A stretch of DNA of 40,266 nt from a virus (Duplodnaviria > Caudoviricetes). The translations under genes were made by a program, and so were the position numbers. How positions within the stretch are numbered: position 1 is the stretch's first letter; the number at the start of each line of letters is the position of its first letter. The notes below the pieces were generated by a model, which was not told the DNA's origin, did not search any database, and worked only from the letters and a program-made list of their open reading frames with translations. Shown one piece after another: positions 573-31,577 of the stretch. Location: positions 1-40,266 of the IMG/VR virus record IMGVR_UViG_3300048898_000030; one strand, given 5' to 3'.

Positions 573-1637
573 CTAATGCATACCCCTAGCAGGGGCACTC
601 AACAAGCGTGGCGAACGTGCCGGGGCAAGGATGGCCCGCAACTGTGCCAATTCCTCGCGGATGGCGGTAAGCTCGTCGCGCCCCTCGATGGTCGGCGCGA
701 CCTCGCCCACGGCATGCGTCACCGCCTGCTGACCGGCATAGATGATCTTAGTGATGACGAGAACGGGCTGCATCAGGCTGTACAGCGTGCCGCCGCCGCC
801 GAGGTTGATGGTATGGGTATGGCTGCCGTCGGGATTGATCGTGTGCGTATGATCGCCAACGACCGAGACATTATGCGCGTGGCTGCCGTCAAGCGTGATC
901 TGATGGGCGTGCGAAGCGCTTTCGGTGCCGGTGGTGAAGTTGTGCTGATGCGCGCCATCAGTGCTGGTGACGGTATTGCCGCCTACCGAAAACGGCCCGG
1001 TACCAAGCGCCGCCGACCCTGTGGTGAAAAACCCGCCGACGGTGTGGTTGTGACTGCCCTGCGCATCGGTGACGCCGGAGTGGGTGTGCAGCGCGCTCTC
1101 GGTCAGCGTCGCCCCGCCATGGCTGTGGCTACCCTGCGTGTCCATCGTGTGACCGTGGCTGCCCGCACCCACCGTAGCCCCACCGTGGCTGTGCGTGCCG
1201 GCCGCCGTGACGGTGAGCGCGTAGTTGGGCAGATGTGTTTGCAGGATCTGGTTCGACAGCCAGCCAAGCTGCTGCGCGAAGGTCAGCGACAGCGTGGTGC
1301 CGTTCGGGTCGGTGACGGTGCCAGGACCGACCAGCGCGCGGCCCTGGACCTTGGGCAGAGCGAACGTGGTGGAACCGTCGCCCGCCCCCCAGTAGGTGCC
1401 CAGGACGGCAAACAGCGCGGCGTAGGTCACACGCGAGACCAACCGGCCATCGCAAACAAGATAACCGGGAGGAGGAGTGGGACCAGCGTAGTCGATGATG
1501 CTGCCAATCGGCATTGCCATACTCAGAAGCTGGTCAATCGCGTCCCAATTCGCGTTAGTTTTACTACCCCATGTGTCACGAGAGGCACCAATTTCCGGTT
1601 TCACGAGAGCCAAGTTGGCTGTAAAAGTGTCTGGCAT
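573..1637 (-). CDS. Tail fibre with tail-collar domain and His-x-His needle
   Basis: Collar motif PIGSIIDYAG..PPGYLVCDG...YAALFAVLG..WG.GDGSTTFALP; ten HxH motifs. Confidence 0.88.
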   Translation of the reverse strand: MPDTFTANLALVKPEIGASRDTWGSKTNANWDAIDQLLSMAMPIGSIIDYAGPTPPPGYLVCDGRLVSRVTYAALFAVLGTYWGAGDGSTTFALPKVQGRALVGPGTVTDPNGTTLSLTFAQQLGWLSNQILQTHLPNYALTVTAAGTHSHGGATVGAGSHGHTMDTQGSHSHGGATLTESALHTHSGVTDAQGSHNHTVGGFFTTGSAALGTGPFSVGGNTVTSTDGAHQHNFTTGTESASHAHQITLDGSHAHNVSVVGDHTHTINPDGSHTHTINLGGGGTLYSLMQPVLVITKIIYAGQQAVTHAVGEVAPTIEGRDELTAIREELAQLRAILAPARSPRLLSAPARGMH

Positions 1638-1654
1638 TGTTAGTTCCCGTGCGC

Positions 1655-1745
1655 TAGAAACGGAACGGCAGCGGTGTAACCAGCACCGCTGCCATTCCTA
1701 ACCAACGATCCTGAACGGAGGACCGCATGGCTAATTTCAAGGGTA
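1655..1745 (+). promoter_or_regulatory. Structured leader, copy 1 (hairpin-CTAACC-RBS hairpin)
   Basis: Stem 1662-1676/1684-1698; CTAACC 1698-1703; CGATCCT 1706-1712 pairs with AGGACCG 1719-1725 over the SD; ATG 1727. Confidence 0.65.
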
Positions 1746-2242
1746 ACGCAGAACGCTACCGTCCACAGCAAAATGCTTATAAAAAGCAATGGCTCGCTCG
1801 GCAGCCCCCAACTTCCAGCGTCCGTAGTTACAAATTGAGCGCTGAACAGAGGGCTAAGAAGGCCGAATACCAGCGCAAATGGCGCACAGCAAACAGGGCA
1901 AAAGTTAACGAAGCCCAGCGCAAGGGGTACGCCGCAAAAGGAAAGCACACTTACGCGCACAAGACCCGTAAGGCACTTCTCAAGCATAATCACATCCGTA
2001 ATCTTGAACTGTTGGCTGCCCGGCAAAAACCAGACCGCTGCGATGCCTGCGGTGGCGCCAAAGGCGGGATTGTATTCGATCATTGCCACAGAACGCTCAA
2101 CTTTAGAGGCTGGCTTTGCAATGGCTGCAATCGAGCCCTCGGGTTCGTAAATGACGATGCTCCCCGCCTTAGAATGCTTGCGGCTTACGTGGAGCGGACA
2201 AAGAATGGACAAGGGGCTCAACTTAACATTCCCGGCATTTAA
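1727..2242 (+). CDS. Endonuclease VII-family free-standing endonuclease, antisense to the late operon
   Basis: CDACG...FDHCH...FRGWLCNGCNRALG motif; GGAGG SD. Confidence 0.88.
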   Translation: MANFKGNAERYRPQQNAYKKQWLARQPPTSSVRSYKLSAEQRAKKAEYQRKWRTANRAKVNEAQRKGYAAKGKHTYAHKTRKALLKHNHIRNLELLAARQKPDRCDACGGAKGGIVFDHCHRTLNFRGWLCNGCNRALGFVNDDAPRLRMLAAYVERTKNGQGAQLNIPGI

Positions 2243-2559
2243 CGGACACCAGCCGGCGGGTGGTTGGCATCGTTGGTAACGCCGGTCGGCGTGTCGGAGG
2301 AGTCGTCCGTAACGGTAACGAACCATGTCGCGCTGGGATCGTAGGGTAGGATTATCCGCCACCCGGCAATGCCTTTGGTGCGCGAGTAGCCCATTCGCAT
2401 CACCCAGTCCCGGTACGTGCCGTAGGACGTGCCGGTGTGTGGGCGGTTGGTTTGCGGCGCGACGGGTGCTTGGAAACTATACACGATGCCGCCATTCGCC
2501 GCGCGCCACTGCGGATTCCCAGTTGGCGTGGTCGTCATCTGACCGGCTGTGCTGGCCAT
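2239..2559 (-). CDS. Hypothetical tail-module protein
   Basis: In late operon with a GGAGG SD and GC3-rich codons. Confidence 0.7.
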   Translation of the reverse strand: MASTAGQMTTTPTGNPQWRAANGGIVYSFQAPVAPQTNRPHTGTSYGTYRDWVMRMGYSRTKGIAGWRIILPYDPSATWFVTVTDDSSDTPTGVTNDANHPPAGVR

Positions 2560-2568
2560 TGCGGCCTC

Positions 2569-2766
2569 CTATGGCTCGGGATGGGGATCTGCGCCGTTGG
2601 CCCCGCCGGACACGCGCATCGGCGCGTCGTGCTCCATGCACTGCTGCTGGATGGCGGCGATCAGCGGCGCGGCGATCTTGTATGGCCCCTCGGCGATCAG
2701 GGCCATCAGCGTGTTCCACTCCTGCGCCCGGAGGGTGACGGCAATCGGGGTGCTGTTTTCGATCAT
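2569..2766 (-). CDS. Small protein after the tail spike (possible fibre chaperone)
   Basis: 65 aa, directly downstream of the fibre gene; function inferred from position. Confidence 0.6.
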   Translation of the reverse strand: MIENSTPIAVTLRAQEWNTLMALIAEGPYKIAAPLIAAIQQQCMEHDAPMRVSGGANGADPHPEP

Positions 2767-2769
2767 CGC

Positions 2770-5103
2770 CTACGCTCCGTCCACGCGGGTCCACTCGACC
2801 GTCGCCACCACGCGCCAGATCACCGCGTTGCCGGTGGGCGGCGTGAAGGTCAGGGAATAGCCGCCGTTGGTGGTGTCGGCGGCTTCTGTTACCGCTATGC
2901 CAGCAATCGTGCCGACGCCGCCCGACACAGGCGTGCCGAGGGGGGTGTATGTCGTCGTGCTTGCCGCACCGCTTCTTTTGAGCAGCCCGAGCGTCTGGCA
3001 CCAGGAATAGCTGTTGGCAGAGTTTGTGCTGTCGGTTGCCGACAGCAACACGGTCAGCGCCGAGCACTGATGCTGCGAAGTCGATGGCATATTAACAACA
3101 TTGATCGCGGAGGCTGCCAGCCCGTCGGCGGTTAGCCTCACCGGGGTCGTATTCGCCGCCGAAACACCCTTGAGTATCTGCTTGTTATTTTGCCCCCGGC
3201 GCCCGCTGGAAATGGTCCCGGCCGAATGGGCGACCAGTCCATATAAGTCGGCAACCGCATTCGTACCCATAGCGACACTGCAATATTGGCTCGCCGAGTT
3301 GCCAGCACCGCCGAGCACCGTCGATCCGATCCCTGAAGCGCTGTTGCCCGACCCGCCGATAATGGTGGCGTCCTGCGCTACCGATGTGATGGTGTTATTC
3401 TCGCCACCACTAATAGTGCTTTGCTGGCCAGCAGCCACCTGCGTCGCGGCAGTGCGCAGGAGTTGAAGATCGACGCTCAGGTTGCCGCGCGAATTGCCGC
3501 CCGCGATCGTGGCGTCAGGATATTGCGCGACAAGTGGCTGCACGCCGCCCGTCCAGGTCAGCACCGACTGATTATCGGCCTGGACAAAAGCCGTAGCCCC
3601 CACGCCTAGCGTGGGCAGGACTCCCGCATTCTGACGGTCGAGGAACAGCACGCGGCATCCGATCGCCGCGCTGGTAAAACCACCCGTATTCGTCCCGGCG
3701 TATAGCCCGGCGTCACCGGTATGGTTGAATATATGCCACCTGGCACCGCCGTTGTTCGCATCCAGCGTGCCATTGCAAATCAGCAACCGGCCAGCCCCCG
3801 CCCCGATCTTCTGGCCGATCAGACTGTCGTGGAAGTTGTGGTCGGAGTTGTTGCAGACCACGCCGTGGCCGTTGTTGTAGAGCAGGTCGATGTCATCGAA
3901 CCAGTTAAGGCTGGTGTTGCCGAAATGAGTGCCGCCACTGCCACCCACGACGCCGGACCCGCCGATAAACACCAGCGGCGCTGTCGCAAATGCTGCCCCC
4001 AGCAGGGCAACGCCGGCGAACCGCACGCGAAGGAACTGCGTATCGTTGCTGTCCTGCAGACTGTCCACCACGTCGAAGCGGATGCCCTCGCCGCCGATGG
4101 TCACCGTCTCGGTGGCGCTGGCTATAGCCTGCATCGAAGCATTGAAGTGCGTTGCATCGGTGATAGATGCGACATAGGCACCGCCGGGTAGATTGGTGCT
4201 AACCACGCTCTCACCGAGGCGCAGGCCGGCCGTGGACGATACCGTGACGGTTGTCGATCCGGCTGTCAGCGTCGCGCCGGTATAGGGGATACCGGCTGGC
4301 TCGTACGTGGAGCACTCGATGCGCGCGCGTCGCGTGCTGGCGATCAGCGGCCCGGCGGCCCCCGCAATGCCGCCGCAGTAGAACAGGATGCCACGGACGT
4401 TGGTGCCGGACAGCAGCCGCAGGCCGTCGATCGGCGCGACAGTCAGCATGTTGACCTGGAACTGCCCGGCGGTGCGCGCAGCGCCGGTCCAGGTCAGCCG
4501 CGTTGGCGCCGATGGCGTGGAGCGGGCAACATTGGAGTTCACCAGGAACTCGGCGCCCGCGCTCTCCAGCGACACGTTCTGTTTGCTGATACTAAGCGGC
4601 TGATTAATCCGTCCGTTGCCGTTTGGCAGCATGACCGTGCCGCCATAACTGTAGTTGGTCACTCGCGACTGGCATAGATTGATCGCCGCCTGAACGGCCA
4701 CGCCGTCGATTTCGTCGGTCAGCGCTACGGCGTGCGGATACACCGCCTGCGCGGCGGCGAGGGTAGGATAATACGCCGAGAGCGGGTGCGAGTTGCCGTC
4801 GAACACCGCACCGAAGTCACGGACGTTCACCACGTCGGCGAAGCGGTTGGCAATCGTGCGTGAGGCCATGCTGCCGGTAGCTATGGCGGTTGACGTGCTA
4901 AGTGGCGCGGTCACCGGCCCCGCCACGGTGCCGCCGGTGGCCAGCGGCAGGAAAGGGCCGCCGGACAGCCCATCGCCATGCTGCTTCAGCGTGGCATCAA
5001 GCGTATCAGCATTGATGTTCCAATGATTGCCCCACTGATCGCCATCAGCGTTCACGGTCGGCTTATAGAGGCTGTAATTGGGCGTCAGCGTATAGTCGCT
5101 CAT
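2770..5103 (-). CDS. Tail spike/fibre, probable beta-helix receptor-binding protein
   Basis: Start re-assigned to ATG 5103 (MSDYTLTPNY); VNVRDFGA.FDG...AVQAAIN motif typical of pectate-lyase-like spikes; S.ISGG.NN repeats near the C-terminus. Confidence 0.8.
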   Translation of the reverse strand: MSDYTLTPNYSLYKPTVNADGDQWGNHWNINADTLDATLKQHGDGLSGGPFLPLATGGTVAGPVTAPLSTSTAIATGSMASRTIANRFADVVNVRDFGAVFDGNSHPLSAYYPTLAAAQAVYPHAVALTDEIDGVAVQAAINLCQSRVTNYSYGGTVMLPNGNGRINQPLSISKQNVSLESAGAEFLVNSNVARSTPSAPTRLTWTGAARTAGQFQVNMLTVAPIDGLRLLSGTNVRGILFYCGGIAGAAGPLIASTRRARIECSTYEPAGIPYTGATLTAGSTTVTVSSTAGLRLGESVVSTNLPGGAYVASITDATHFNASMQAIASATETVTIGGEGIRFDVVDSLQDSNDTQFLRVRFAGVALLGAAFATAPLVFIGGSGVVGGSGGTHFGNTSLNWFDDIDLLYNNGHGVVCNNSDHNFHDSLIGQKIGAGAGRLLICNGTLDANNGGARWHIFNHTGDAGLYAGTNTGGFTSAAIGCRVLFLDRQNAGVLPTLGVGATAFVQADNQSVLTWTGGVQPLVAQYPDATIAGGNSRGNLSVDLQLLRTAATQVAAGQQSTISGGENNTITSVAQDATIIGGSGNSASGIGSTVLGGAGNSASQYCSVAMGTNAVADLYGLVAHSAGTISSGRRGQNNKQILKGVSAANTTPVRLTADGLAASAINVVNMPSTSQHQCSALTVLLSATDSTNSANSYSWCQTLGLLKRSGAASTTTYTPLGTPVSGGVGTIAGIAVTEAADTTNGGYSLTFTPPTGNAVIWRVVATVEWTRVDGA

Positions 5104-5324
5104 GCCGCCAACTCCAGTTGGTCGTTGGGTGGCTGCGCTGGCAGCGAGGTCAGCGTCCAAGTGCCGGCGCTGCACATCTGCGTCGGCTGTTGCCAGGTGC
5201 GGATCAGCGTGGCCGCTTCGGCGCCGAACGCGACCTGGGCCAGGCCGCCGATCTCGTAGGTGCGGTATGTGGCATAGACCGACGCGCCATACGGGCCGCG
5301 ACCATAGGGGCGTGGCGTTGCCAT
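5100..5324 (-). CDS. Small tail-module protein
   Basis: ATG 5324 coupled to the upstream stop; PYGRGPYG motif. Confidence 0.65.
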   Translation of the reverse strand: MATPRPYGRGPYGASVYATYRTYEIGGLAQVAFGAEAATLIRTWQQPTQMCSAGTWTLTSLPAQPPNDQLELAA

Positions 5325-7039
5325 CAGGGTGCGACGCTCGGGGTGACGGTGCCGGCGCAGCGCATGTTGCCGGAGGCGTCTACCGACCATTTCGCGACGC
5401 CGGATACGGCAAAGACCAGCTTGCCGCTTGCGTTGTCGTAGGACAGCGTGCGCGTGCCTGCGGTGTCGAATGCGATGTGATGCCCATCGGCCAGCCAGAT
5501 CGCATGCCCACCAGCCTGTTGCACCGCGAACTCGGTGGAGAACGCCGCCTTGAGGAACGGCCCATACGCCGCATAGTTCCGGCGGAAGCTGGTGCCCGGC
5601 AAATCGGCGCTCGGCCCAACCCGCACGCCCCAGCCGATCACCGCATTAGTCCCACCGGCAACAGCCTTCGCGCCGACCACATCAACGACAACGCGCACGC
5701 CCTGATTGCCGGGAACGTCAGCGCTGCCCGCGCCGCCATCGTCGTCGTCGTTGGCGAGGACATCGAACTCGACACCGATCGAGGATATACCGGACAGGCT
5801 CGACTTCAGGCCGGTGTTGTCGGTGGCCGAGATGTTTCCGCCAAACGAAGCATGATTTCGCCCGGTCGGGCTGACGACGGAATACCCTGTGACCGCGACG
5901 AGGTTGCCGCCGGACGGCTTGGTGCTGGTGATGACTGCCGCGACGCCGAGCGTATCCTCCAGTGCCGATGACGTTGGCGTGGCGTTGATTCGCAGCGCCG
6001 TGACGGTGTTATGCGCCACGCCACCGGTATGGTTCACCGTGCTGTCGATGCGGACAACCGGAGCGAGAAACCCGGTCGCGGTATTGCTGCGGGCGAAATA
6101 CTTGGACCCGACAAAGCTCTCTACGATGTCGGTACCCATGCCCACGACAGGCGTGGTACCGGAACTACCGACATAGTTGCCGTCATAGCGCCACAGCACG
6201 GGCGTTGTCGGGCCGCCGGTCGGCGCCGTGTTGACGAACTGGCGCCCGCGCGGAACAACAATAGTGCCGTAGTCGGCAGCCGCAGCGCGTGCCGCCGCCC
6301 AGGCCGCCGTGTCGTTGGTGGTGCCGTTCAGTACGGCGCCGAAGTCCGTGACATTGATCCAGTCGTGCGCGCGGTCCTGCGCCGAGCGCGACGTTGTGCC
6401 GCCGGTTGCGGTGTAGTTGAGCGGCCCCAGCATCGTCCCGCCCGACAGCGGCAGGAAACCCGGCCCACCACCACTGCCGCTATGCGCGTCCACGTAGCCC
6501 TTGGTGGCAGCCTGCAGAGCGTCGGTGGGATCTCCGGCCAAATACACCGGCCCGGTCAGGGTACCGCCCGCAAGCGGCAGATACGCCCCGATACTGGCCG
6601 TGCCGCCTGAGCCTGTGGCCGCCTGAACGCCCAGCGTGCCAGCCGAGAACCGCACGATATCGCCGGCCGACACCGTGATGGTCAGCGGCGTGGTGAAGTC
6701 AGCCGGATCGACCAACTGGCCCCAGTACAGCCGGTTGCCGCCCGCCGCCGCGTCCCACAACTCAAAGAACCCGACCACGCCCCACGAGGACGTAGCCTGC
6801 TGGAACTCGATGGACGTGGTGTTGGCGGCGATGTTGGACGGCCCGGAGATCAGCGCGAAGGTGGCTGGTGTGCGGACATAGCCGCCGCCCGACGCCTCCA
6901 GCCCGCGCACCGTCTCGGACGGCGGTTGCGCGGCCAGGCACAGTGCCACATACACCTGCGTCGGCGAGGCCATCGGCGCGAAGCCCAGGCTGTGGCCGAG
7001 TAGGGCCTGCTCAAGACCGATGCTGGCGCTGCCGTCCAT
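5324..7039 (-). CDS. Tail fibre protein
   Basis: N-terminal EASGGGYVR...WG....LWDAAAGGNRL domain; LPLxGGTxxG repeats; AATKGYVD; INVTDFGA. Confidence 0.8.
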   Translation of the reverse strand: MDGSASIGLEQALLGHSLGFAPMASPTQVYVALCLAAQPPSETVRGLEASGGGYVRTPATFALISGPSNIAANTTSIEFQQATSSWGVVGFFELWDAAAGGNRLYWGQLVDPADFTTPLTITVSAGDIVRFSAGTLGVQAATGSGGTASIGAYLPLAGGTLTGPVYLAGDPTDALQAATKGYVDAHSGSGGGPGFLPLSGGTMLGPLNYTATGGTTSRSAQDRAHDWINVTDFGAVLNGTTNDTAAWAAARAAAADYGTIVVPRGRQFVNTAPTGGPTTPVLWRYDGNYVGSSGTTPVVGMGTDIVESFVGSKYFARSNTATGFLAPVVRIDSTVNHTGGVAHNTVTALRINATPTSSALEDTLGVAAVITSTKPSGGNLVAVTGYSVVSPTGRNHASFGGNISATDNTGLKSSLSGISSIGVEFDVLANDDDDGGAGSADVPGNQGVRVVVDVVGAKAVAGGTNAVIGWGVRVGPSADLPGTSFRRNYAAYGPFLKAAFSTEFAVQQAGGHAIWLADGHHIAFDTAGTRTLSYDNASGKLVFAVSGVAKWSVDASGNMRCAGTVTPSVAP

Positions 7040-7704
7040 CAGAACACCGTTGCCAACTCGCTACGATACGGCGCTCCGCTATAGTCGCTCTGCTGCTTGT
7101 GGAGGTCAGCAGCGGTGACTTCCTCCCGCCATTTCGCATCAGCTTGTTGCGCGCGGTCGTCGTCCAACTCGTACAGCGCGCCTTCCTTTATAACGCCCCA
7201 CAGATAGACGCCATACAACTGCTCAAGGATGACGTTGGTATCGGATGGCAGCAGCAGCGGCTTGGGGCGGGCGTAGTAGCCCATCATCGCCATCTGCGGT
7301 TTCCAGTTTGGGTCTGGCGGATCCGGAATGACGGGATGCGGCAACCACTCGATACAGTCATGCACCAGCCGGTACGCCGTGCATGGCTGGCCGAGGATGC
7401 TGCCCACCGCACCCTGCCACGCACTGGTCTGCGCGCCAGTCCAGTGTCCCGACCATTCGTCTAAGAGAACGAACAGCTCCCCGCTCGTCGCGTCGCGGAT
7501 GCTCTCCATGGTCGCGAAATCCGGCGGCAGCGAGATGTAGGCATTGTCGATCGGCTGGGTGACGGTCACCACCATGCAGCGTGCGCGCAGGTTCTGGGCG
7601 ATCTTGGTTTCGGTCATACGTACCCAGGTCGGCACGCGGTCCACGACATCGCGCCGGTTCAGGTAGCTTACGCAATCGTCCGAAAGCTGCTGCAGGCTGG
7701 CCAC
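7039..7704 (-). CDS. Head-tail adaptor (tail tubular A-like)
   Basis: LNR.D....P.W....E..I...LR, LP.DF, YYA....L..DTN..L..YLWG; position after the capsid gene. Confidence 0.75.
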   Translation of the reverse strand: MASLQQLSDDCVSYLNRRDVVDRVPTWVRMTETKIAQNLRARCMVVTVTQPIDNAYISLPPDFATMESIRDATSGELFVLLDEWSGHWTGAQTSAWQGAVGSILGQPCTAYRLVHDCIEWLPHPVIPDPPDPNWKPQMAMMGYYARPKPLLLPSDTNVILEQLYGVYLWGVIKEGALYELDDDRAQQADAKWREEVTAADLHKQQSDYSGAPYRSELATVF

Positions 7705-7707
7705 CGG

Positions 7708-8034
7708 TTAGTCCCGGCGAGGATGCGGCGTTGGCGTGGGTGTTGGCGTCGGGGTTTCGCCGGCCCCCAGCACCGGCTCCTGCTGCGAGGCAACCAGCGT
7801 CTGGCCGGCCTCGTAGGTGGCATTCCCGGCGGCGAGCGCGCAACTGCGCATGTCACCGGCCGAGGTGGCTTCGGGATAGAGGCGCACCAGCAGGATGGGA
7901 TCGATGTCCTCGATCAGCACCGGCTTTGCCGCCTCGACGGAGCCTGTCACGGGCGCCTTGCCCTGCATGCCGACACCGGGGGACGGACGCTGCCGAGGCG
8001 CGTCAGCGTGGTTCTCATGGGTTGCAAGGGCCAT
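7708..8034 (-). CDS. Hypothetical virion-module protein
   Basis: Translationally coupled ORF in the late operon. Confidence 0.6.
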   Translation of the reverse strand: MALATHENHADAPRQRPSPGVGMQGKAPVTGSVEAAKPVLIEDIDPILLVRLYPEATSAGDMRSCALAAGNATYEAGQTLVASQQEPVLGAGETPTPTPTPTPHPRRD

Positions 8035-8345
8035 CAGAGCGTACTCCTGTCATCGGTTCTGAACACGCAGTTGTCGGGGTCGTTGAGCCAGCGATTCAGC
8101 GCGGCCTCGTCCTTGGTGATCCCCAGGCGTTGCAGGTTCTGCCAGATCACCATCGGAATGCGCGCCACATGCACCGTGTCGCGCCGCACCAGCGGATCGA
8201 AGTTGGACGCAATCCGCTTGGCGCTCTCGACAATCGGCCGGGTGTTCTGCGAGTGGGTAAAGACCAACCCGGCATCGGTGTCGGTATCGACCTCGGTGGC
8301 GCGCAGCGTTACCGGGTCGTAGTTGGAATAAAGCAGATTACTCAT
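8034..8345 (-). CDS. Conserved-type phage protein downstream of capsid
   Basis: HVARIP.VI...WLNDPDN..FRT motif, often seen after podovirus capsid genes. Confidence 0.7.
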   Translation of the reverse strand: MSNLLYSNYDPVTLRATEVDTDTDAGLVFTHSQNTRPIVESAKRIASNFDPLVRRDTVHVARIPMVIWQNLQRLGITKDEAALNRWLNDPDNCVFRTDDRSTL

Positions 8346-8356
8346 TGCACATACCG

Positions 8357-8456
8357 TGCTATAAGCGGGGCACTGTCGGCTCGCGAAAGCCGGCAGGCCC
8401 CTAACCTCGATCCTGAAGGGAAGGACCGAAGGCTATGTCTCACATCGACGATATCA
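8357..8456 (+). promoter_or_regulatory. Structured leader, copy 2
   Basis: Extended -10 TGcTATAAG; stem 8367-8381/8388-8401; CTAACC 8401-8406; CGATCCT pairs with AGGACCG; ATG 8435. Confidence 0.65.
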
Positions 8457-9028
8457 AGATCGCCATCAAGCGCGCGGGTGATAACCAATGGCGTAACGAC
8501 AATCTGGAGGCAAAGCGAGCCTACCAACGCGCCTATTACGCCAAGAATAAAGAGAAGCTGAGGGAGAACAGCAAGCGTGCCTACGCCAATCTCCCACCCG
8601 AGATTAAAGCTGCACGGGTTGCTTATCAGGCGCAGTGGAGAAAAGACCACCCAGAGGCTCGGAAGAAGATCACTAAGCGCTACCGGGAAGGTAACAAGGA
8701 ATATCTCGCCCGAGCCGATCGCGAATACAACGCTAACCCTGAACGTCGGAAGATCCTTCGCGCGCGCCACGCCGCGACACTGGAAAGCCTTGCCGGCCGT
8801 CCTCGCCCCGAGATCTGCGACGCTTGCGGAGGACCGCCTGACGACAAGATCGGAATGCACTTCGATCATTGCCATAAGCGTGGGCACTTCCGGGGATGGA
8901 TATGCCGAGAGTGCAATCTGGCGCTTGGCAACATCCGAGACGACATCGGCAGACTCCGCAAGCTGATCGCCTACCTCAAACGCACCAAGGATGGTCCCGC
9001 TAGCCAATTCAGCCTCCCTGGGGTATAA
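8435..9028 (+). CDS. Endonuclease VII-family free-standing endonuclease, antisense to the late operon
   Basis: CDACGG...FDHCH.RGHFRGWICRECNLALG; paralogue of 1727-2242. Confidence 0.88.
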   Translation: MSHIDDIKIAIKRAGDNQWRNDNLEAKRAYQRAYYAKNKEKLRENSKRAYANLPPEIKAARVAYQAQWRKDHPEARKKITKRYREGNKEYLARADREYNANPERRKILRARHAATLESLAGRPRPEICDACGGPPDDKIGMHFDHCHKRGHFRGWICRECNLALGNIRDDIGRLRKLIAYLKRTKDGPASQFSLPGV

Positions 9029-9057
9029 GCGCCCACCACCGTCGGTTGAACAGGAGG

Positions 9058-10041
9058 CTATTGATTTAGATCGAAGATTGTGGCATGAGCCTTAGGTGCA
9101 GTCGGACGTATACATCCTTCGTAGACAACACCACCCTGGGTATTATCGCCGGTGGTGGCGTACGTTTGGTCGACAAAGGATCTGCCCGATAGTGGCGCCA
9201 TCTCGGCGTAGTCGGTGCTGACCAGGATGATCTGGTGCGCCGGCATAAAGCGGTCGGGGGCGAGTTGGATGGCACCGAAGTTGGTGCGATACACGTCCAC
9301 CGCGCCCTGAATCGTCACCTGCTCGCTCGACGTGACGTTCTGGATGTTCTGCGCCACCACGGCGTTGCCGGTCCCGCCCTGCGACAGCGTGGCAAAGTAG
9401 GCTTTGACGTTGCCCGACATGATGCCCAGTGTGGGCTTGCCGCCGGCCTGCCAGCATTGCTGCATCGCGCTATCGACCATCGCCAGCGTGAGATCGCGCA
9501 GAGTGCCGGCGGTGCCAGCATTGGAGCCGTCGCCGACCGGCATCACACCAGCGCCGGCACCGCGTGAGCCGTTGACCGTGTAGCATGGCAACCCGGACAT
9601 ATGGCGCGGGTCGGTGATGGTGCGCACCAGCGGCGAGGTGATCGCCAGTTCCAGGTCGCGCTTGACCTCCATGCCGCGCAAGATTAACTGCCGGTTGTAC
9701 TCGTCCTCGCCACCTGCCATGTCGGCCGCGCGCAGGGTGTTCGATACGCCGACTGTACGAGCCAAAATTTGACAAACATTATTTAATCTGACTGGCTTCA
9801 CAACGACTTGCATAACCGCAGTAAAGCCCTCGGGCTGCGCGTTATCAGCGGCTTGATTAAGCTCTTGTACTAGGAATTCTGTAAGTACTTGTTGGGCATC
9901 TACTGATGGTAGTGCCGAGTAAAGCGGCGTTTCGTCGGGATCTATTCTTTCGATAATGTCCCGCAAGTCCTCCTTTACACCAATCGCTGCAGTCTCGATA
10001 TAAGTCCCCGCCGGGGCGGCACCTTGGGCTCCTACAGCCAT
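9058..10041 (-). CDS. Major capsid protein (DUF5309/SU10-like)
   Basis: KEDL.DII.RIDPDETP, NVCQI, EVKRDLE, VDVY.TNFG motifs; follows the scaffold gene; start set at ATG 10041 by SD spacing. Confidence 0.9.
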   Translation of the reverse strand: MAVGAQGAAPAGTYIETAAIGVKEDLRDIIERIDPDETPLYSALPSVDAQQVLTEFLVQELNQAADNAQPEGFTAVMQVVVKPVRLNNVCQILARTVGVSNTLRAADMAGGEDEYNRQLILRGMEVKRDLELAITSPLVRTITDPRHMSGLPCYTVNGSRGAGAGVMPVGDGSNAGTAGTLRDLTLAMVDSAMQQCWQAGGKPTLGIMSGNVKAYFATLSQGGTGNAVVAQNIQNVTSSEQVTIQGAVDVYRTNFGAIQLAPDRFMPAHQIILVSTDYAEMAPLSGRSFVDQTYATTGDNTQGGVVYEGCIRPTAPKAHATIFDLNQ

Positions 10042-10236
10042 AGTCATCTCCATTGACGCAGGAGACGCACTTTTGGCGTCTGCTGCTGTTGAAACCGGAT
10101 TGTGGGTTTCGCAATGGAATGACCGGGCTAGTCTGGGTTGGTGCAAGCACTCCCAGAGGACCGCAGATCAGTCTTTAGCGACGGCACTTCCCGTCCAGCC
10201 GGTTGGTGGCCTAAGCCACTCCTTCGGACGACAGGT
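10042..10236 (-). ncRNA. Candidate structured cis-regulatory leader of the capsid mRNA
   Basis: Several hairpins; two GGAGTG-loop-CACCAACC motifs; GTCATTCCATTG pairs with CAATGGAGATGAC across the SD. Confidence 0.55.
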
Positions 10237-10942
10237 TGCTAGTATGTGACAGCAAGCGACGCGTCGTCAATACGGTTTGCCATTCCTCCATTGTCATGGC
10301 GTGCTTAGAAAGATTACAGGAAGGGCAGAGGATCTGGATATTGTCCGGCCAGCTGGTGCCACCACGACTAACTGGCACGATATGATCGCAATGAAACCCG
10401 CCCGATACGTCAGCACGGCAATGCGTGGCGGCACATTGGTAGTTCTGTCCAGCCAAGAGCATCAGGACATCATCCGCGGTAAATCGGCCAACAGCACTCC
10501 GACGAACTGCCTTCGAGGCCCTGTCAAACGCCGATTGCCGCTCGGGGTTATCCTTGGCCCATTGCTTTGAGGTCACCCTTACGCGGGTCTTGTGTGCCGG
10601 ATCGTACTTATACTTCTCGTGGTATCGCTTCCCAGTCCAGAGTCGCTTTCGCTCCTTCTCCTGCTCCGCTCTTGGCTTAGCCCAACGATCGTAGATGGCC
10701 TTACGCCGATCGGGGTTGTCCTTATTCCACTGGATGGACTGTGCGTTGAAGCGCTCCTTGTGAATACGGCTGCGCGCCAAGTTCTGTGCCCGCACGCAAT
10801 CGTAGCACGCTCCAGTCGTAACCCAACGTTCGGCTATATGACCATGTTTGCAGGAAGTGCCTGTGAAATATCGCTTTAAACCGAGAGCTTCCGCCTCATC
10901 CTTGGATACAAGCGTACGCTTAGGTAGTATGGGGTCAGCCAT
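10211..10942 (-). CDS. Free-standing HNH endonuclease
   Basis: N-terminal RYFTG..CKHGHIAER...C.DC; C-terminal DHIVPVSRGG....NIQILCPSCNLSK. Confidence 0.9.
   Translation of the reverse strand: MADPILPKRTLVSKDEAEALGLKRYFTGTSCKHGHIAERWVTTGACYDCVRAQNLARSRIHKERFNAQSIQWNKDNPDRRKAIYDRWAKPRAEQEKERKRLWTGKRYHEKYKYDPAHKTRVRVTSKQWAKDNPERQSAFDRASKAVRRSAVGRFTADDVLMLLAGQNYQCAATHCRADVSGGFHCDHIVPVSRGGTSWPDNIQILCPSCNLSKHAMTMEEWQTVLTTRRLLSHTSNLSSEGVA
10241..10270 (-). promoter_or_regulatory. Putative capsid promoter inside the HNH 3' end
   Basis: TTGACG-N18-CATACT on the minus strand. Confidence 0.45.
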
Positions 10943-11030
10943 ATGCCCTCTCACACCAGGGTCTATTGGTCAGGAGACGGCGGCGCGTTCAGGGCGCTGC
11001 CGTTCTCCGATTCATCTCGGCATACTACCA
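10902..11030 (-). promoter_or_regulatory. Structured leader, copy 3, with an opposing antisense promoter
   Basis: Minus strand GGAGAACGGCAGCG...CGCCGCCGTCTCC-TGACC-hairpin-ATG 10942; plus strand TTGGAT(10902)-N17-TAGTAT(10925) points across the start codon. Confidence 0.65.
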
Positions 11031-12082
11031 TTCGCACGTCGCGCTGCCAACAAAGCCGCTGCGTTCCTGACGTTGGCCTTGGCATCGAACGCCTGTTCGG
11101 CGACCTGAACGCGCTCGGTGGGTGCCGGCGGAGGCGGTGCGCCACGCACGGGCGCCTGTAGCCGTTGGGCCGGTGCTGCGGTCTTGGCGCCTTCCACCCA
11201 GCGATCGAACATCGCCGCTTTCATCATCGTGCGTAAATGGTGAGCGCTGGTCAGGCCGCGCAACTCGTCCTGCGTGAAGCCGCCCTTGGTGGTGGCCCAT
11301 TCCACAATCTGCCGCTGCGCCTGCGCCCGCTCGGTCGGGTCGCTCCAGAAAGGGAACTCCTTGGCCAGTTGCTCATTGGCCGCTGCCACCTGCTGCGCCA
11401 TGGCTCTCTCGTGGGCCTGCTGCTGCAAGGCGGTGAGGTTGCCAAGGCGCCCCTGTTCCTCGCGCGACGCCTCGTATTGTGCGAGTTCGCGCAGATACCG
11501 CTGCGGGTCGGTTTCCAGCAGCGCCGCATCAGGCCGCGCCACGCCCTGCACCGTCTGGGCAAGTCGCTGCAGCTCCGGCTGGATATACGGCAGCACGGTA
11601 GCCAGGGCTTCCTGCTGTGCGGCGAGGGAGCGCCGTTGCTGGGCGATCTCCTGGGTCTTGGCGGTATAGTCCGCCGACTTCAGCACCGCTTCGCGCAGTT
11701 GGGCGGTGGTGTAGCGCTGACCCTCGATCTCGACGGCGGCCGCCATGTCGCTGGTCGTCTGTTCGAGCGGCGCCGTCCCTGGCGGCACGGCCACACCAGG
11801 CACGCCCAGGGCGCGCTCCATGGCACTGAGGCCGGTCTCGGCCTTGGGTGCCGCGTCAGGTGCCTTGGGTGCCTCAGCAGGCTTCTGAGCGCCCGCAATG
11901 GCGTCGTTGGGCGCTGGGCGGCGCTCGGGTGCTGTGGACTCTGGTGCGCCCTGTTGGCGGCGCTGCTGACTGAGTAGCCGGGCAGCCTCGGAGACTGAGA
12001 TGGCGGGCTGCGATGCCGGCGGCGGGGAGCTTTCGCCGCCACCCTCAGCCGGTGCGGCGGGTGCGGATGTGGTTTCGGACAT
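11012..12082 (-). CDS. Capsid scaffolding protein
   Basis: Between portal and capsid; low-complexity N-terminus; EIEG...T..QL......DYTAKTQEIA coiled coil. Confidence 0.8.
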   Translation of the reverse strand: MSETTSAPAAPAEGGGESSPPPASQPAISVSEAARLLSQQRRQQGAPESTAPERRPAPNDAIAGAQKPAEAPKAPDAAPKAETGLSAMERALGVPGVAVPPGTAPLEQTTSDMAAAVEIEGQRYTTAQLREAVLKSADYTAKTQEIAQQRRSLAAQQEALATVLPYIQPELQRLAQTVQGVARPDAALLETDPQRYLRELAQYEASREEQGRLGNLTALQQQAHERAMAQQVAAANEQLAKEFPFWSDPTERAQAQRQIVEWATTKGGFTQDELRGLTSAHHLRTMMKAAMFDRWVEGAKTAAPAQRLQAPVRGAPPPPAPTERVQVAEQAFDAKANVRNAAALLAARRANGSMPR

Positions 12083-13228: not shown

Positions 13229-15935
13229 TGGCGCCCCCTCCCGGCATAGGAAGCGGCGGTCCGCCCGGTCCCATCAGCGGCGACATGGCCGCACGCTGCG
13301 TTAGCAATCCATACGCACCCGGTGGCCCACGCCCGCCGATCAGCGCGCTCTTGATCGCCGCCTGCGTGGCGGGGTCCATCCCACCACCGGGCGGCGGTGA
13401 CGGGCGTGGCTGCGGTGGTGGCGCCATTCCACCGCCCGGCGGCGGCATCATCGGCTGCGGCGGCCTGGGCGGCCCCTGCGGCTGTGGTGGCGACGCTCCC
13501 ACGGCCGGCGGCTGCGGCGACATCGGGCTGGGCGTGCTGGACAGCAGCCCAACGGCCGGCACCTTGCTCTGCATCGCCTGCTTGAACTCGTCATAGCTCG
13601 GCGCTGGCGTGCCAAACTGGGCGGCAGCCACCCAGGTCTTGGACCACGCATCGAGCGCCGCCTTGTCGCGCTCGCGGTCGTCCTCCATGAGCAGCCGCGC
13701 GCGATCGGTCTGTTGCTTCGCGCGGTCGCCTTCAATGTCCGCCGCTGTCTTGGATTGCTGCACCTGCGCCAACAGCATGTCCGTGTTGGGCTGCTGCGGC
13801 GCCGGCGGCGGCTTGAACCCCGGTGGCAGCGCCTTGAAGTACGACGACACGTCGCTGATGCTCACCGTCTCCAGCATGCGCGCGAGCGTATTGCGATACT
13901 CGGGAATGCCGGACAACGGGTTGTCCATCCCGCCCACCTGCATGATCTGCTCCTGCTTCTGAGCAATCGCCTGCAGCATCGCCAGTCGCTCATGCGGCAT
14001 GCCCTTGCCGCCGACGTTGATGGAGGTCTCCCACATCGTGGCCAGCGCCCGCGGATCGATGGAAATCCACTCGCCCCGGATACGCACGACGTTCGGCCGG
14101 TCCTGCTGGCGCGCCATCATGCGCAGAATGCCGGCATAGAGCGGTGCCAGACCGGTCTCAGCCAGGGTGCGCGCTACCATGTCGAGGCGGTCCTGCGCGG
14201 CGCTGCTCTGCTGGCTCACCGCCACCGGCGAGGTGGACTGCAACTCGTCCACCGTGAGGCCCGCTGAGGCACGGGTGATGCCGGTGCGGCTTTCCCTGAT
14301 GGCCTCGAGCACGTCCATGACCGGCAGCGCCTCTTTGCCGGCGAACGGCTTGACCAGTTCCGCCACCGCGCCCTGCTGGGCAACCCGGATGATGCTGCCG
14401 ATCGCCGTCTGGCGTACGTCTGCTAGGTTCGCCTGCCCGATCACCACCGCCGTGCGCGGGAACATCGCCTGCCCGAGGCTATCGAGCACCGCACGCATAA
14501 CGCGGGATTCCACCCGCTGCAGGTCCATGACCATATCGGCCTGGCTGCTGCCGATAATCCGTCCCGGCTCCCGATAGGGCGTGAAGCACGCCAGCGGGAT
14601 CTCGTCGCAGCGCTCCCACTGCACCAGCGTCGAGGCATCACCCAGCATATGCACATGGATCAGCTCGGCGCGGTTGTCGCCGTCGGTGTCGCACCTGATC
14701 CAACCCTCGGCATAGCGCACGATACCCATGGATCTGTCGTTGGGTGGCGCACCCTTGATGTTGTAGCCCTGCGCATAGTCCCGCGCGATGATCTCCTGCC
14801 GCTGCCGGGTTCGCATCATCGAATCGCGGTGCGCCAGCACCTTGTCCTCGGGCAGCCCCATCTCGATCAGATCGCTGGCCGCGACATCCCGCACATGGAA
14901 CACCGCACGCGCGCCCTCGACGGTGGCGGCGTCAGCGACTACCCAGACGCATTCCGCCGCCACCGCCTCGATCACCGGCCACGATTGTTGGGCGCTGCGG
15001 GTGATAGTCGCCGACCAGTATTCCGCCGGGGCGCCCTGGCTCAGATACATCTGCCCGTCCGGCGTCTTGGCCAGCGCCTCCTGCTCGCGCTGCAGCATTG
15101 GCCGGCGCACGATGCGCTGCGCCTCAATGCCAGGTTCGGCAAGCAGCATCTGCAACTGCGGAAGTAGCAGCCCCTCGCACACCTCGGTGCGGATTTGCTG
15201 TCGCTTGCCCCAATACCAGCGCACCCAACCGGCCTTGCGGGTCAGCGCATCGAGCAGCGCGTCATGCAGCACCGTCCACCCCTTATTCGCGGTGAACAGC
15301 GCCCAACGGCAATAGTCCGTCGCCTGCCGCGCCAGCGTTGTGGCAAGCTGGTCGTTGCCGGTGATCTCACTGCTGATCGGCTCGAACGACACCGGATCTT
15401 CCACCGCCGTGAACAGCCGCAGCAGGCTTGGCAGCGTCTGGCGGATGGTGTCCCTGACGACCGTGAGCACAATCTGGCTGCGCCCCGTAGCCTCGTCACC
15501 GAATGGCCGGCCCGCATAGTATTGGCTTGCGGTAATACGCTCGCGGCTTAGGTATTGGTCGTAGTTCTGCGCGATCTTGAAGTAATACCGCGCGACGGAA
15601 GTGATCTCCTCGTCCGTCTTGCCGAGACGTTCAAAGATGATCTCCTGTTGCCAGGATGCACCGTCTGGCTTGGCGGCGGGCCGCAACCCTGCCGCATACT
15701 TGCGAAGCTGTGCCGGCAGTTGGTCGTCAGTGTCTGTCTCCGCCTCGGTGTCCTTGGGCGGCAGCAGATAGGCCAGCACCTGCTCGGCGCCGAGCTGCAT
15801 GCCGGCGGGACGCATGCCCTGCGGCACCAGTCCGGGGATCTGCGGCATCGGCGGTGGTCCGAACGACTGCGCCGACTGGCCAAGCAGACTGCCGGGCGGC
15901 ATTGGCGGCGGTGGTGCTGGCAGCATGCCGCTCAT
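13218..15935 (-). CDS. Portal protein
   Basis: Follows terL; YYAG.PFGDE..GRSQIV...VRDTI....PSLLRLF and ESRTGITR motifs; Pro-rich termini; start set at ATG 15935. Confidence 0.88.
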   Translation of the reverse strand: MSGMLPAPPPPMPPGSLLGQSAQSFGPPPMPQIPGLVPQGMRPAGMQLGAEQVLAYLLPPKDTEAETDTDDQLPAQLRKYAAGLRPAAKPDGASWQQEIIFERLGKTDEEITSVARYYFKIAQNYDQYLSRERITASQYYAGRPFGDEATGRSQIVLTVVRDTIRQTLPSLLRLFTAVEDPVSFEPISSEITGNDQLATTLARQATDYCRWALFTANKGWTVLHDALLDALTRKAGWVRWYWGKRQQIRTEVCEGLLLPQLQMLLAEPGIEAQRIVRRPMLQREQEALAKTPDGQMYLSQGAPAEYWSATITRSAQQSWPVIEAVAAECVWVVADAATVEGARAVFHVRDVAASDLIEMGLPEDKVLAHRDSMMRTRQRQEIIARDYAQGYNIKGAPPNDRSMGIVRYAEGWIRCDTDGDNRAELIHVHMLGDASTLVQWERCDEIPLACFTPYREPGRIIGSSQADMVMDLQRVESRVMRAVLDSLGQAMFPRTAVVIGQANLADVRQTAIGSIIRVAQQGAVAELVKPFAGKEALPVMDVLEAIRESRTGITRASAGLTVDELQSTSPVAVSQQSSAAQDRLDMVARTLAETGLAPLYAGILRMMARQQDRPNVVRIRGEWISIDPRALATMWETSINVGGKGMPHERLAMLQAIAQKQEQIMQVGGMDNPLSGIPEYRNTLARMLETVSISDVSSYFKALPPGFKPPPAPQQPNTDMLLAQVQQSKTAADIEGDRAKQQTDRARLLMEDDRERDKAALDAWSKTWVAAAQFGTPAPSYDEFKQAMQSKVPAVGLLSSTPSPMSPQPPAVGASPPQPQGPPRPPQPMMPPPGGGMAPPPQPRPSPPPGGGMDPATQAAIKSALIGGRGPPGAYGLLTQRAAMSPLMGPGGPPLPMPGGGANAG

Positions 15936-16498
15936 GTTTCCCAATCCCCGAAACATACCTCGCGAACGTATCGCGCCGTCAGGCTCGCGCGCGGATCGCG
16001 GCGATCGCCTCCCGTTATCTGCTGCCATGTCTTGCCGTAGATGACAGCGCTAATCGCACCGATGCTGACGCCAAACCTGTCTGCCAACTGCTGAAGGGTT
16101 GCCGTGCTATCCCAAATCTCGCGCACCGCAGCTTCCGTCAATACGGCAACAGGGCTTTCCTCTCCTCGCTTTGACGGTGAGGTCATGCGACCCCGGTTGT
16201 AACCATCGAGGTTGTTGTCCCGGTATGTGCCCCAATACAGATGGTCAGGGTTCACGCACGACGTCACGTCGCAATGGTGGCACGCCAGCATGCCGGGGCT
16301 CGGCTGCGGCCGACCATGCAACTGCAACGACACATGCGACGCCGTTATATTGCGACCCTCTCGGCCGCCACTACCTATCAGGCCATAGCCGTCTGGCTGG
16401 CATGCGCCATCCCACAACCAGCAGCCACTATTCGGCTCCGGCGACACGAACTTCCAGAACCGCTGCTCCAGAGGAATGCGATGGTATACCCGAGGCAT
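15932..16498 (-). CDS. Free-standing HNH homing endonuclease
   Basis: PEPNSGCWLWDG...GYG...CHHCDVTSCVNPDHLYWGT..DN; C-terminal HTH; TAATG-coupled to terL. Confidence 0.9.
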   Translation of the reverse strand: MPRVYHRIPLEQRFWKFVSPEPNSGCWLWDGACQPDGYGLIGSGGREGRNITASHVSLQLHGRPQPSPGMLACHHCDVTSCVNPDHLYWGTYRDNNLDGYNRGRMTSPSKRGEESPVAVLTEAAVREIWDSTATLQQLADRFGVSIGAISAVIYGKTWQQITGGDRRDPRASLTARYVREVCFGDWET

Positions 16499-19474: not shown

Positions 19475-19801
19475 CTATTCCGTTGGCGTCGGCGCATCGA
19501 GCAGATTGGTTTCCTGCTGCGGCGCAGGCTCAACCTGGCCATCGATGAGCTTGCTGGACATCTCGCGAGCGGCGTTTAGGTGCAGCAGCAGCACGCCACC
19601 GACTTCGCCAGTATGCGCAGTCACCGCGAGGTCTGGAATTGTCTTGCGAAGTAACCCGAGCGCAGCCCGGACCTGATCCGATGACATACGCACGGAATCC
19701 GTTGTATCTAAAGCGAATGCGTTCAGACGGTTAACAAGCTGACTTGTCTGGATTTTGGAACGGGTCCGTGCATCGTGTTCTGGACTAAGCCTGACAGCCA
19801 T
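19475..19801 (-). CDS. Putative terminase small subunit
   Basis: First minus-strand gene upstream of terL apart from the inserted cassette; RSKIQTSQLVNRL...QVRAALGLLRKTIPDL. Confidence 0.55.
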   Translation of the reverse strand: MAVRLSPEHDARTRSKIQTSQLVNRLNAFALDTTDSVRMSSDQVRAALGLLRKTIPDLAVTAHTGEVGGVLLLHLNAAREMSSKLIDGQVEPAPQQETNLLDAPTPTE

Positions 19802-20372: not shown

Positions 20373-20533
20373 CAGTGCAGCAGCGGGCCGGCGCGACCGA
20401 ACAGCTCGGCGGCAATCCAGAACGCGATGGCGGCCCAGCCGAGGTGTGGGCGACTGAGCGCCACCGGCCATGCCGATGCGGCCAGGACAGCGCACACGAA
20501 CGCGAACACGAGCAGGATGAGCGAGATCACCAC
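20372..20533 (-). CDS. Small two-TM membrane protein
   Basis: GGAGG SD, GTG start; two hydrophobic segments; stop overlaps the next ATG. Confidence 0.65.
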   Translation of the reverse strand: MVISLILLVFAFVCAVLAASAWPVALSRPHLGWAAIAFWIAAELFGRAGPLLH

Positions 20534-20691: not shown

Positions 20692-20710
20692 CAGGCGGTC
20701 CTCCTGGTTT

Positions 20711-31055: not shown

Positions 31056-31269
31056 TGAGCGACAGGATCTCAAGGACAAGCTGCTGATGGCTGACCTATC
31101 GCTGAAAACCCGACAGAGCTTCTGGGAGACGCCTCGGAATCTCGCATTGATCGTAGCGGCGGCTGCCGGCATTGCTGGCGTCCTGGGGTTCAAGTTGGGT
31201 CAACGTGAGCCGCTGCCGCAGCAACTGGTATTCCCGCCCGGCACTATCATCACGGTGCCAAACCGCTAA
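31045..31269 (+). CDS. Small single-TM protein
   Basis: GTG start overlapping the RHH gene; WETPRNLALIVAAAAGIAGVLGFKLG. Confidence 0.65.
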   Translation: MTDDERQDLKDKLLMADLSLKTRQSFWETPRNLALIVAAAAGIAGVLGFKLGQREPLPQQLVFPPGTIITVPNR

Positions 31270-31271
31270 GC

Positions 31272-31433
31272 GAGGACGACGCCCCAGGGCTGAGGCGCCG
31301 CCCTCTAACCGCCACCGAGAAGGAACCTCGACCGCGGCTGCACCCAGACTAGCAGCCATCCACGAACCAGCGCGACGGCCCGCCCGTCCCCCGCGCTGAC
31401 GACCCCTGGGCACAACCGAGAAGGAACCTCGAC
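31272..31433 (+). promoter_or_regulatory. Structured leader, copy 4, with duplicated RBS hairpin
   Basis: Imperfect stem 31272-31305; CTAACC; ACCGAGAAGGAACCTCGAC at 31314-31332 and 31415-31433. Confidence 0.6.
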
Positions 31434-31571
31434 ATGCTTAAGCTCGCCGCCCTGATTGCCGCCGTGGTGATCGGCTCCCTCGCCGCCGTCAGTATCGCCG
31501 ATGCCACCTCATGCACCACAACGTGCAGCGGCTGGGGTAATTCACGCACCTGCTATACCAACTGCTTCTAA
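31434..31571 (+). CDS. Secreted four-cysteine peptide (45 aa, absent from the ORF track)
   Basis: AAGGA SD; MLKLAALIAAVVIGSLAAVSIADA/TSCTTTCSGWGNSRTCYTNCF. Confidence 0.75.
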   Translation: MLKLAALIAAVVIGSLAAVSIADATSCTTTCSGWGNSRTCYTNCF

Positions 31572-31577
31572 CCCCCA

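Follow-up and report, generated by a model that had tools for sequence, protein, structure and literature searches.

The window, i.e., the whole 40,266-nt stretch of DNA analyzed here, is a complete circular phage genome with a 157-nt terminal repeat, whose gene content includes an SU10-type portal, capsid and adaptor genes, a scaffold, a terminase, a repressor pair, an ERF recombinase, and a NusG-type antiterminator, with the late genes on the minus strand. An alphaproteobacterial host is suggested by the genomes and cultured phages in which the element described here occurs. Four copies of this element are present in the genome (Table 1), each comprising a long GC hairpin, the box CT(A/G)ACC, and a second hairpin over the Shine-Dalgarno (SD) sequence. 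We recovered this layout at all four loci to which an earlier note, made from the sequence alone, had assigned it, together with the strings that copy 1 was said to share with copy 3 and with copy 2, and with the -10-like hexamers on the opposite strand (tgaTATCGT of copy 2 being read at 8453-8448). A genome scan for the layout, with criteria set post hoc after the copies had been seen, returns exactly four sites, which are the four copies, whereas 200 block-wise dinucleotide shuffles give 0.07 sites on average and at most 1; we take the element and its four copies to be real. Behind copies 1 and 2 are plus-strand endonuclease VII (EndoVII)-family open reading frames (ORFs), opposed to the late operon, that of copy 1 being an optional insertion whose junction is empty in relatives; copy 3 heads an HNH ORF co-oriented with the late operon, between the scaffold and capsid genes; and copy 4 lies in the accessory region. 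The earlier note also had a start following the second hairpin in every copy and saw the module as one for toxic nucleases, neither of which extends to copy 4: it has GCGGCT where the family has ATGGCT and heads no nuclease. As the note had it, the two translationally coupled HNH genes (55-570 and 15932-16498) do without the element; they abut the upstream stop codon and give no model match.

Table 1. Features of the four copies and their setting in the window (promoters and RNAs are predictions)
Feature	Position	Strand	Remarks
Copy 1 sense -10-like hexamer TAGAAA	1655..1660	+	Adjoins long hairpin; same place in relatives; putative function
Copy 1 predicted antisense RNA, 81 nt, two stem-loops	1652..1732	-	Probable ends, from family promoter offset; R2 60.2 bits
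Copy 1 RNA parts	1662-1698 (SL-II, the long hairpin)		SL-I over start codon and SD; linker GGUUAG; SL-II; U-containing tail
Copy 1 antisense -10 TACCCT	1740..1745	-	TA offset 17, the family peak; -35 region CTGTGG (weak)
EndoVII-family ORF, 171 aa	1727..2242	+	PF02945, E = 1e-11; antisense to late operon
Copy 2 sense extended -10 TGcTATAAG	8360..8365	+	From sequence
Copy 2 predicted antisense RNA, about 84 nt	8357..8440	-	R2 46.0 bits
Copy 2 parts	8367-8401; 8401-8406; 8408-8428		Long hairpin; CTAACC; SD hairpin; relic AAGGCT before ATG
Copy 2 antisense extended -10 TGaTATCGT	8448..8456	-	TA offset 17 from displaced ATG; no -35
EndoVII-family ORF, 197 aa	8435..9028	+	PF02945, E = 4e-16; antisense; separates the major capsid gene from the following late gene
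Copy 3 sense promoter TTGGCA-N17-TAGTAT, TG extension	11022..11050	-	From promoter scan and sequence
Copy 3 predicted antisense RNA, about 83 nt	10937..11019	+	R1 15.9 bits (E = 4e-4), untrained; R2 24.3 bits
Copy 3 parts	10973-11008; 10968-10973	-	Long hairpin; CTGACC
Copy 3 antisense promoter TTGGAT-N17-TAGTAT	10902..10930	+	TA offset 16; fits family consensus TTG-N20-TAnnnT
HNH endonuclease ORF, 243 aa from ATG at 10942	10211..10942	-	PF01844, E = 4e-11
NusG-family antiterminator	19785-20537	-	Upstream of late operon
Copy 4 predicted antisense RNA, about 77 nt	31262..31338	-	R1 12.9 bits (E = 6e-3), untrained
Copy 4 parts	31272-31305; 31305-31310; 31334-31339		Long hairpin; CTAACC; relic start GCGGCT
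Copy 4 antisense extended -10 TGcTAGTCT	31346..31354	-	TA offset 16 from relic start; no -35
Duplicate of copy 4's 19-nt SD-hairpin segment	31415..31433	+	First copy 31314-31332; abuts ATG at 31434
45-aa ORF	31434..31571	+	Hydrophobic N terminus (signal peptide by eye), four cysteines

A covariance model, which the note had proposed as a check, recovered the copies withheld from it. A first pattern, consisting of CCTAACC and the SD hairpin only, gave 8 viral and 55 metagenome loci; 34 of the latter were left out as having no upstream hairpin by eye, and the sequences kept for alignment, 4 of them viral and 13 from metagenomes, were distinct ones chosen by eye for a long hairpin with an adjoining -10. 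Model R1, built from the resulting 19 rows (these 17 relatives and copies 1 and 2), returns copies 3 and 4 as its best two full-length matches outside copies 1 and 2. The broader model R2 gives copy 4 only 12.4 bits (E = 0.057), less than the 13.6 bits of an unrelated hairpin at 20733-20855. That hairpin was considered as a possible fifth copy and rejected: it has CAAACC instead of CTRACC, a 41-nt insert, and no SD or start.

A second pattern (CCTRACC, GAGG, and ATGGCTGA), in which neither hairpin nor promoter is specified, matches about 670 stored stretches. A sample of 120 loci from these includes 113 distinct ones, of which 80 have a strong upstream hairpin (about nine doubtful rows, e.g., tape-measure starts, included), 29 clearly have none and served as controls, and 4 of intermediate energy were dropped. 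At E <= 0.001, R1 matches 59 of 68 candidates but none of the 32 controls. Of 68 downstream proteins, three (L219, L220, and L231) were judged nonmembers and dropped; the other 65, many of which were truncated at 102 aa, comprise 40 nucleases, 3 Bro-N or Rha proteins, and 22 without assignment. Pfam identifies 24 of the nucleases (HNH types, NUMOD4, EndoVII, GIY-YIG, and DUF559) and PHROG 16 more. The module is thus not nuclease specific. With 29 candidates scored in each, at least 7 of the 151 genomes belonging to the class of G001 have an R2 match, as do 3 of 5 cultured phage records; cultured carriers include Sulfitobacter phage pCB2047-A, where an HNH gene follows the head gene, and Rhizobium phage RHph_I3_18. 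In other phages and genomes the module also stands before genes that are co-oriented or isolated. The searches that the note had suggested hence uncovered a large phage family, although all of these counts are of sequences and not of independent events. A pattern scan of bacterial genomes gave seven loci, one of them convincing (L202); a locus search with the copy 2 nuclease protein recovered only one near-identical contig and 12 distant genes that have no such leader; and BLASTN of the leaders against plasmids and cultured phages recovered short or chance pieces only. Two model matches, at 35620-35705 of OM868076.1 (L420) and 17425-17510 of HQ332142.2 (L430), fall inside annotated ORFs, suggesting that start codons may have been miscalled in those records.

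The fold of the module appears to have been selected on the strand opposite the mRNA. Covariation, whose absence the note had taken as decisive against the element, is present: 11 of 15 long-hairpin pairs change on both sides across the 19 rows. In 46 long hairpins counted by a strand-symmetric rule, sense A.C wobbles (i.e., antisense G.U) outnumber sense G.U wobbles 66 to 8, the 19-row alignment of the copy 1/2 clade has 36 antisense and 6 sense wobbles, and the antisense fold is the more stable in 39 of the 46. On the antisense strand, 89.8% of long-hairpin cells are paired, against 39 to 56% in slid controls (for the whole structure). The SD hairpin of alignment A5 is not counted as evidence because it was part of the search pattern, and alignment A7, which was fitted to the model, leans towards the structure of that model. 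All four window copies form two clean antisense stem-loops with better energies and z-scores than the sense strand: -46.0 (z = -7.3) versus -37.0 kcal/mol in copy 1, -41.9 versus -39.1 in copy 2 (where the long hairpin taken alone is better on the sense strand, -27.0 versus -23.5), -38.8 versus -32.1 in copy 3, and -45.8 versus -27.0 in copy 4. In the antisense fold AGCCAU pairs with U/GGUU of the CT(A/G)ACC box, which would explain why ATGGCT and the box are both conserved; as the fold is selected on this strand, the sense SD hairpin would be mostly a mirror image of the first stem-loop of the small RNA. The tails after the second stem-loop (SL-II) are moderately U rich (mean, 4.6 of 10; at least six T's in 14 of 71); being at the same time complementary to the sense -10, they are not independent evidence of termination.

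This strand asymmetry bears on a reading in which the module is purely an mRNA leader, with a 5' stabilizer hairpin and an SD-sequestering hairpin acting in cis and no antisense RNA. Such control is established in T4, where I-TevI, I-TevII, I-TevIII, segB, and mobE have RBS-sequestering cis hairpins relieved by a late promoter within the hairpin (PMC2988022, available text); these too are free-standing phage endonucleases held at translation by structure over the RBS, and both hairpins can also form on the phage mRNA (z = -5.9, -3.3, and -2.8 for copies 1 to 3). We nevertheless regard this reading as improbable. The wobbles are on the wrong strand for it, the sense fold of copy 4 is no better than shuffles (z = -0.75), the backward promoter at a fixed offset described below is left without explanation, and the sense -10 lies upstream of both hairpins instead of within one. 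Moreover, the available text of PMC2988022 describes no dedicated antisense RNA for the T4 genes.

The backward sigma-70 promoter motif lies within the ORF. Of the 80 members, 59 have a TA dinucleotide at offset 16-17 after the A of the ATG, as have 2 of the 29 controls, the promoter having been absent from the search pattern. Among these 59, T occurs at -7 in 36 (against 68 of 410 in the background), and 30 have TT at -35, separated by a 17-nt spacer (against 23 of 410). Among the genome matches of R2, a model that stops before the promoter region, TA occurs at 16-17 in 14 of the 15 with a readable start; 20 were looked at, and the 5 without a readable start were left out. The family consensus, read backward within codons 5 to 14, is TTG-N20-TAnnnT, and its spacing predicts a transcription start at the A of AGCCAT, opposite ATGGCT, which is where SymR starts. 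The putative antisense promoters of the note are clear as a motif in copy 3, which has it in full, and at the level of the family; the motif is weak in copies 1, 2, and 4, which have no good -35, with the -10 in register in copies 1 and 4. A strict sigma-70 scan of 8200-11300 (9 of 12 matches) reported only the sense promoter of copy 3 and no antisense promoter for copies 2 or 3. Copy 2 belongs to a subclade of 27 members with a displaced start, which have TA at 8 in 12 cases, at 6 in 8, and at 17 in 2, and by eye no -35 in register; the TA at 6-8 may reflect Tyr-Lys codons. With only 2 of these 27 having TA at 17, copy 2 is the least secure of the three nuclease copies.

Elsewhere, the module stands before ORFs that start with MADS(E/D)N(T/S)R (L406, L407, L411, L414, L416, and L419 in G012 and G019), several of them of only 21 to 25 aa and with six repeats in one genome; we read this N terminus as a probable imprint of the backward promoter.

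Taken together, we consider it likely that the module makes a 75- to 85-nt cis-antisense RNA of the FinP/RepX/SymR type that blocks translation of the gene behind it. Each copy has two facing promoter motifs, with the sense -10 directly before the long hairpin. The RNA from the backward promoter would fold into SL-I, covering the SD and start codon, and the GC-rich, terminator-like SL-II, and would pair with the complementary mRNA leader so as to occlude the ribosome, as has been shown for SymR and proposed for RepX. In copies 1 and 2 the late mRNA would add further antisense. Computed duplexes of the four RNAs with the leaders, which have no accessibility term, range from -98 to -111 kcal/mol for cognate and from -22 to -58 kcal/mol for noncognate pairs. 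The note's portable unit of promoter, leader, and cis-antisense RNA draws good support from sequence comparison; its comparison with SymR passed over RepX and FinP, which are closer, and over the selection of the fold on the antisense strand.

Copy 4 would be a variant of this arrangement in which the start codon of its own has decayed and the RNA acts on the duplicated 19-nt RBS, 101 nt downstream of the first segment, that precedes the 45-aa ORF. RNA 4 on this second RBS gives -47 kcal/mol, against -13 to -18 for the other RNAs (again with no accessibility term), and the ORF, which has no Pfam or PHROG match, is a candidate target. The copy 4 segment occurs in nine loci: the start codon is kept in L396 (ATGGCT, heading a lipoprotein-like ORF) and in L392 (GTGGCT), and in L391, L395, and L398 the segment heads long ORFs that are nuclease-like by eye. 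The two-copy SD-hairpin layout is kept in L393 and L394 and, with changes, in L392. The small peptides of the window, L393, and L394 have a hydrophobic leader and are cysteine rich, and that of L392 has a hydrophobic leader; such peptides vary between near-identical phages, and a hairpin (31577-31603) lies 3' of the ORF.

We then consider the genomic junctions, with orientation taken from tblastn and the ORF adjoining the leader. In 60 of 66 capsid-gene relatives, both genes of the copy 2 junction are present, the site being empty in 30 and filled in 30. The filled sites hold an antisense nuclease-like ORF in 22 cases (counting near-duplicates), a co-oriented HNH gene in 6, a remnant with the leader in 1, and neither in 1. 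R2 matches 20 of the 22 antisense insertions (of the other two, L354 has the module by eye and L332 is without it) and none of the 6 co-oriented ones. The note had held that the module lets nucleases sit antisense within the late operon. The correlation at this one junction is in accord with that claim, although related phages could share the arrangement by descent; on the favored mechanism, a free-standing nuclease gene that is supplied by the module with a promoter and a brake could settle in the orientation opposed to the late operon.

The same junctions accommodate a different role for the backward promoter, namely that it and the hairpins serve mainly to restore expression of the late operon where a gene has been inserted antisense, with the late mRNA being processed or stabilized and nuclease repression arising as a by-product of late read-through. 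In keeping with this, 37 of 38 full-length R2 matches in the capsid-gene relatives put the structured strand on the late strand, SL-II of copies 1 and 2 ends 25 to 30 nt before the next late start codon, and the phage encodes a NusG-type antiterminator; the backward promoter is also weak in the copy 2 subclade. We think it unlikely, as a backward transcript from the co-oriented copy 3 would be opposed to the scaffold gene, co-oriented and isolated genes elsewhere have the same module, and SymR and RepX, according to the portions of the literature available, act as free small RNAs. Apart from this, the antiterminator may matter for read-through of the terminator-like hairpins of copies 1 and 2.

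The relatives suggest that the module travels with optional genes and is exchanged among them. L327, with a capsid protein 99% identical, agrees with copy 2 through the hairpin as far as CTAACC, beyond which come another SD hairpin and an HNH-like gene (L327:11571-11649 aligns to window positions 8357-8437), and L352 and L357 have one common leader followed by different nucleases from the start codon on; the module thus looks like a crossover point for cassette exchange. Relatives of the copy 3 HNH gene in L380 and L361 are without the module, which is hence not required. The genes of copies 1 to 3, which combine a nuclease domain with optional insertion between conserved genes, probably represent free-standing homing endonucleases. 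The swaps seen in L327 and between L352 and L357 might instead mark a DNA-level element, a single-strand hairpin or recombination site for cassette mobility, and a DNA strand folded on itself would likewise fit the wobbles of one strand (as G.T). This we hold to be highly improbable: promoter motifs are conserved on both sides, the element is homologous to known RNAs, no recombinase or HUH gene is linked to the copies in the window, and ordinary homologous or microhomologous recombination at common sequence explains the swaps.

Two further observations were made at these insertion sites. Co-oriented HNH insertions without the module follow the capsid gene in L359, L362, L366, L373, L378, and L387 and precede it in L380, and their start codon follows a TG-TATAC/TATAAT-like -10 by a few bases, which suggests leaderless mRNAs and a second regulatory class. 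Flanking the copy 2 insertion, the capsid gene in its last codons and the next gene in its first ones (9058-9080 and 8320-8345) differ from their counterparts in the near-identical empty-site relatives L326, L333, L377, and L384, as expected of co-conversion or target-site escape at a homing insertion.

Among known RNAs, the whole window has no Rfam match at the gathering threshold (GA). Below it, copy 1 matches positions 1-75 of the RepX/R1162 model (RF00043) with 25 bits (GA, 55), and copies 2 and 3 have no match to it at E <= 10 (1550-11150). Full-model matches to R1162, PtaRNA1, symR, or FinP, all below gathering, are found in 15 of 39 family loci, the best scores being 38.6 (GA, 55), 36.3 (GA, 47), 33.6 (GA, 61), and 36.1 (GA, 45) bits, respectively. 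Conversely, R2, built from phage sequences, finds Escherichia coli SymR from base 836, its annotated 5' end, with 27 bits (1.4-kb locus, filters off); R1 did not find it at E <= 1 in a 1-Mb search with filters.

RepX, the RNA of R1162/RSF1010, was compared by way of the Rfam consensus and the description in PMC8136791. The available text of that paper and of a review (PMC9977716) gives it two stem-loops, a GUUA linker, and overlap with the repA RBS and start codon; the predicted phage RNA resembles it in all of these and in its length of about 75 nt, and the RF00043 consensus has the same order of hairpin, CCUAACC, SD hairpin, and AUGGCU. The target of RepX is repA of an IncQ plasmid, whereas those here are PF02945 and PF01844 proteins and a peptide without assignment in a phage genome, which, unlike the plasmid, has several copies of differing sequence. 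SymR (RF01809) has its promoter inside the symE ORF, where silent -10 mutations abolish the RNA (PMC1891008, available text), and shares with the module the TA at 17, a 5' end opposite the start codon, and the order hairpin, CTAATC, SD hairpin, and ATGACT. SymE, however, is a toxin of the AbrB fold whose promoter is SOS inducible, and the phage targets are EndoVII, HNH, GIY-YIG, antirepressor-like, and other genes; the window copies have no symR match at E <= 10, and no SymE-family Pfam match was found among the window proteins or the downstream genes scanned.

FinP of traJ (RF00107; clan CL00016), about 50% identical to RepX according to the available text of PMC8136791, is likewise a two-stem-loop antisense RNA to a leader, and L312 matches its full model with 36.1 bits. 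It differs in depending on FinO, the phage encoding no FinO/ProQ domain (PF04352), and in its U tails, which are shorter in the phage module; there is no FinP match in the window. PtaRNA1 (RF01811) has a full-model match of 36.3 bits on the antisense strand of L305, below its gathering threshold of 47, and its target genes are other ones. As in the FinP/RepX/SymR class, the phage element has two stem-loops of ~75 to 80 nt opposite the target leader and a short G(U/A)(U/C)A linker, with overlap of the SD and start codon in copies 1 to 3 and, in copy 4, of an SD hairpin that has lost its start. We therefore propose that it works like FinP, RepX, and SymR, and it belongs to none of RF00043, RF00107, RF01809, and RF01811 because it falls short of their cutoffs or has other targets.

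In the literature within reach, which excluded subscription papers and most supplements, we found no publication on such a module in phage nuclease genes and nothing uniting the four Rfam families beyond FinP-RepX; the accessible parts of PMC2864571 (with the supplement to its structured-RNA screen) and PMC3300014 added nothing. What is new would thus be a phage-wide variant of a known cis-antisense mechanism. More tentatively, FinP, RepX, SymR, and PtaRNA1 might form one superfamily of plug-in antisense modules with phages as the largest reservoir, serving as a universal head for selfish genes (HNH, EndoVII, GIY-YIG, and PD-(D/E)xK nucleases and antirepressors) that is swapped by recombination at CT(A/G)ACC or the start codon, each copy having diverged to silence only its own gene and permitting insertion against the late operon. 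Cis-antisense RNAs of this shape have so far been described in plasmid conjugation, in plasmid copy number control, and at one toxin-antitoxin locus. Should the reading be correct, the same switch would sit on hundreds of phage homing-endonuclease and antirepressor genes, the four Rfam families would merge, and the frequent MA(D/E)xxxx N termini of these phage proteins would be the imprint of a hidden promoter. It would also be a second answer, beside the T4 hairpins, to keeping free-standing nucleases quiet, here in temperate sigma-70 phages, and would provide a large natural set of sense-antisense pairs, with copies carried by cultured phages.

Three other regions of the genome are recorded here. 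In the leader of the major capsid gene (10030-10215, minus strand), the repeated words CACCAACC, GTGCCGTCGC, and GGGAGTGCTTGCACCAACCC recur in several relatives, with or without a nuclease inserted upstream, marking a candidate conserved structured leader or operator. In the early region, a 43-nt direct repeat (26596-26638 and 26907-26949) is 77% identical between copies 311 nt apart. Directly past the AAA_25 gene, a GCGCCAATT / AATTGGCGC repeat cluster (20700-20870) forms a long imperfect inverted repeat; this gives a weak false match to the RNA models and is a candidate replication origin.
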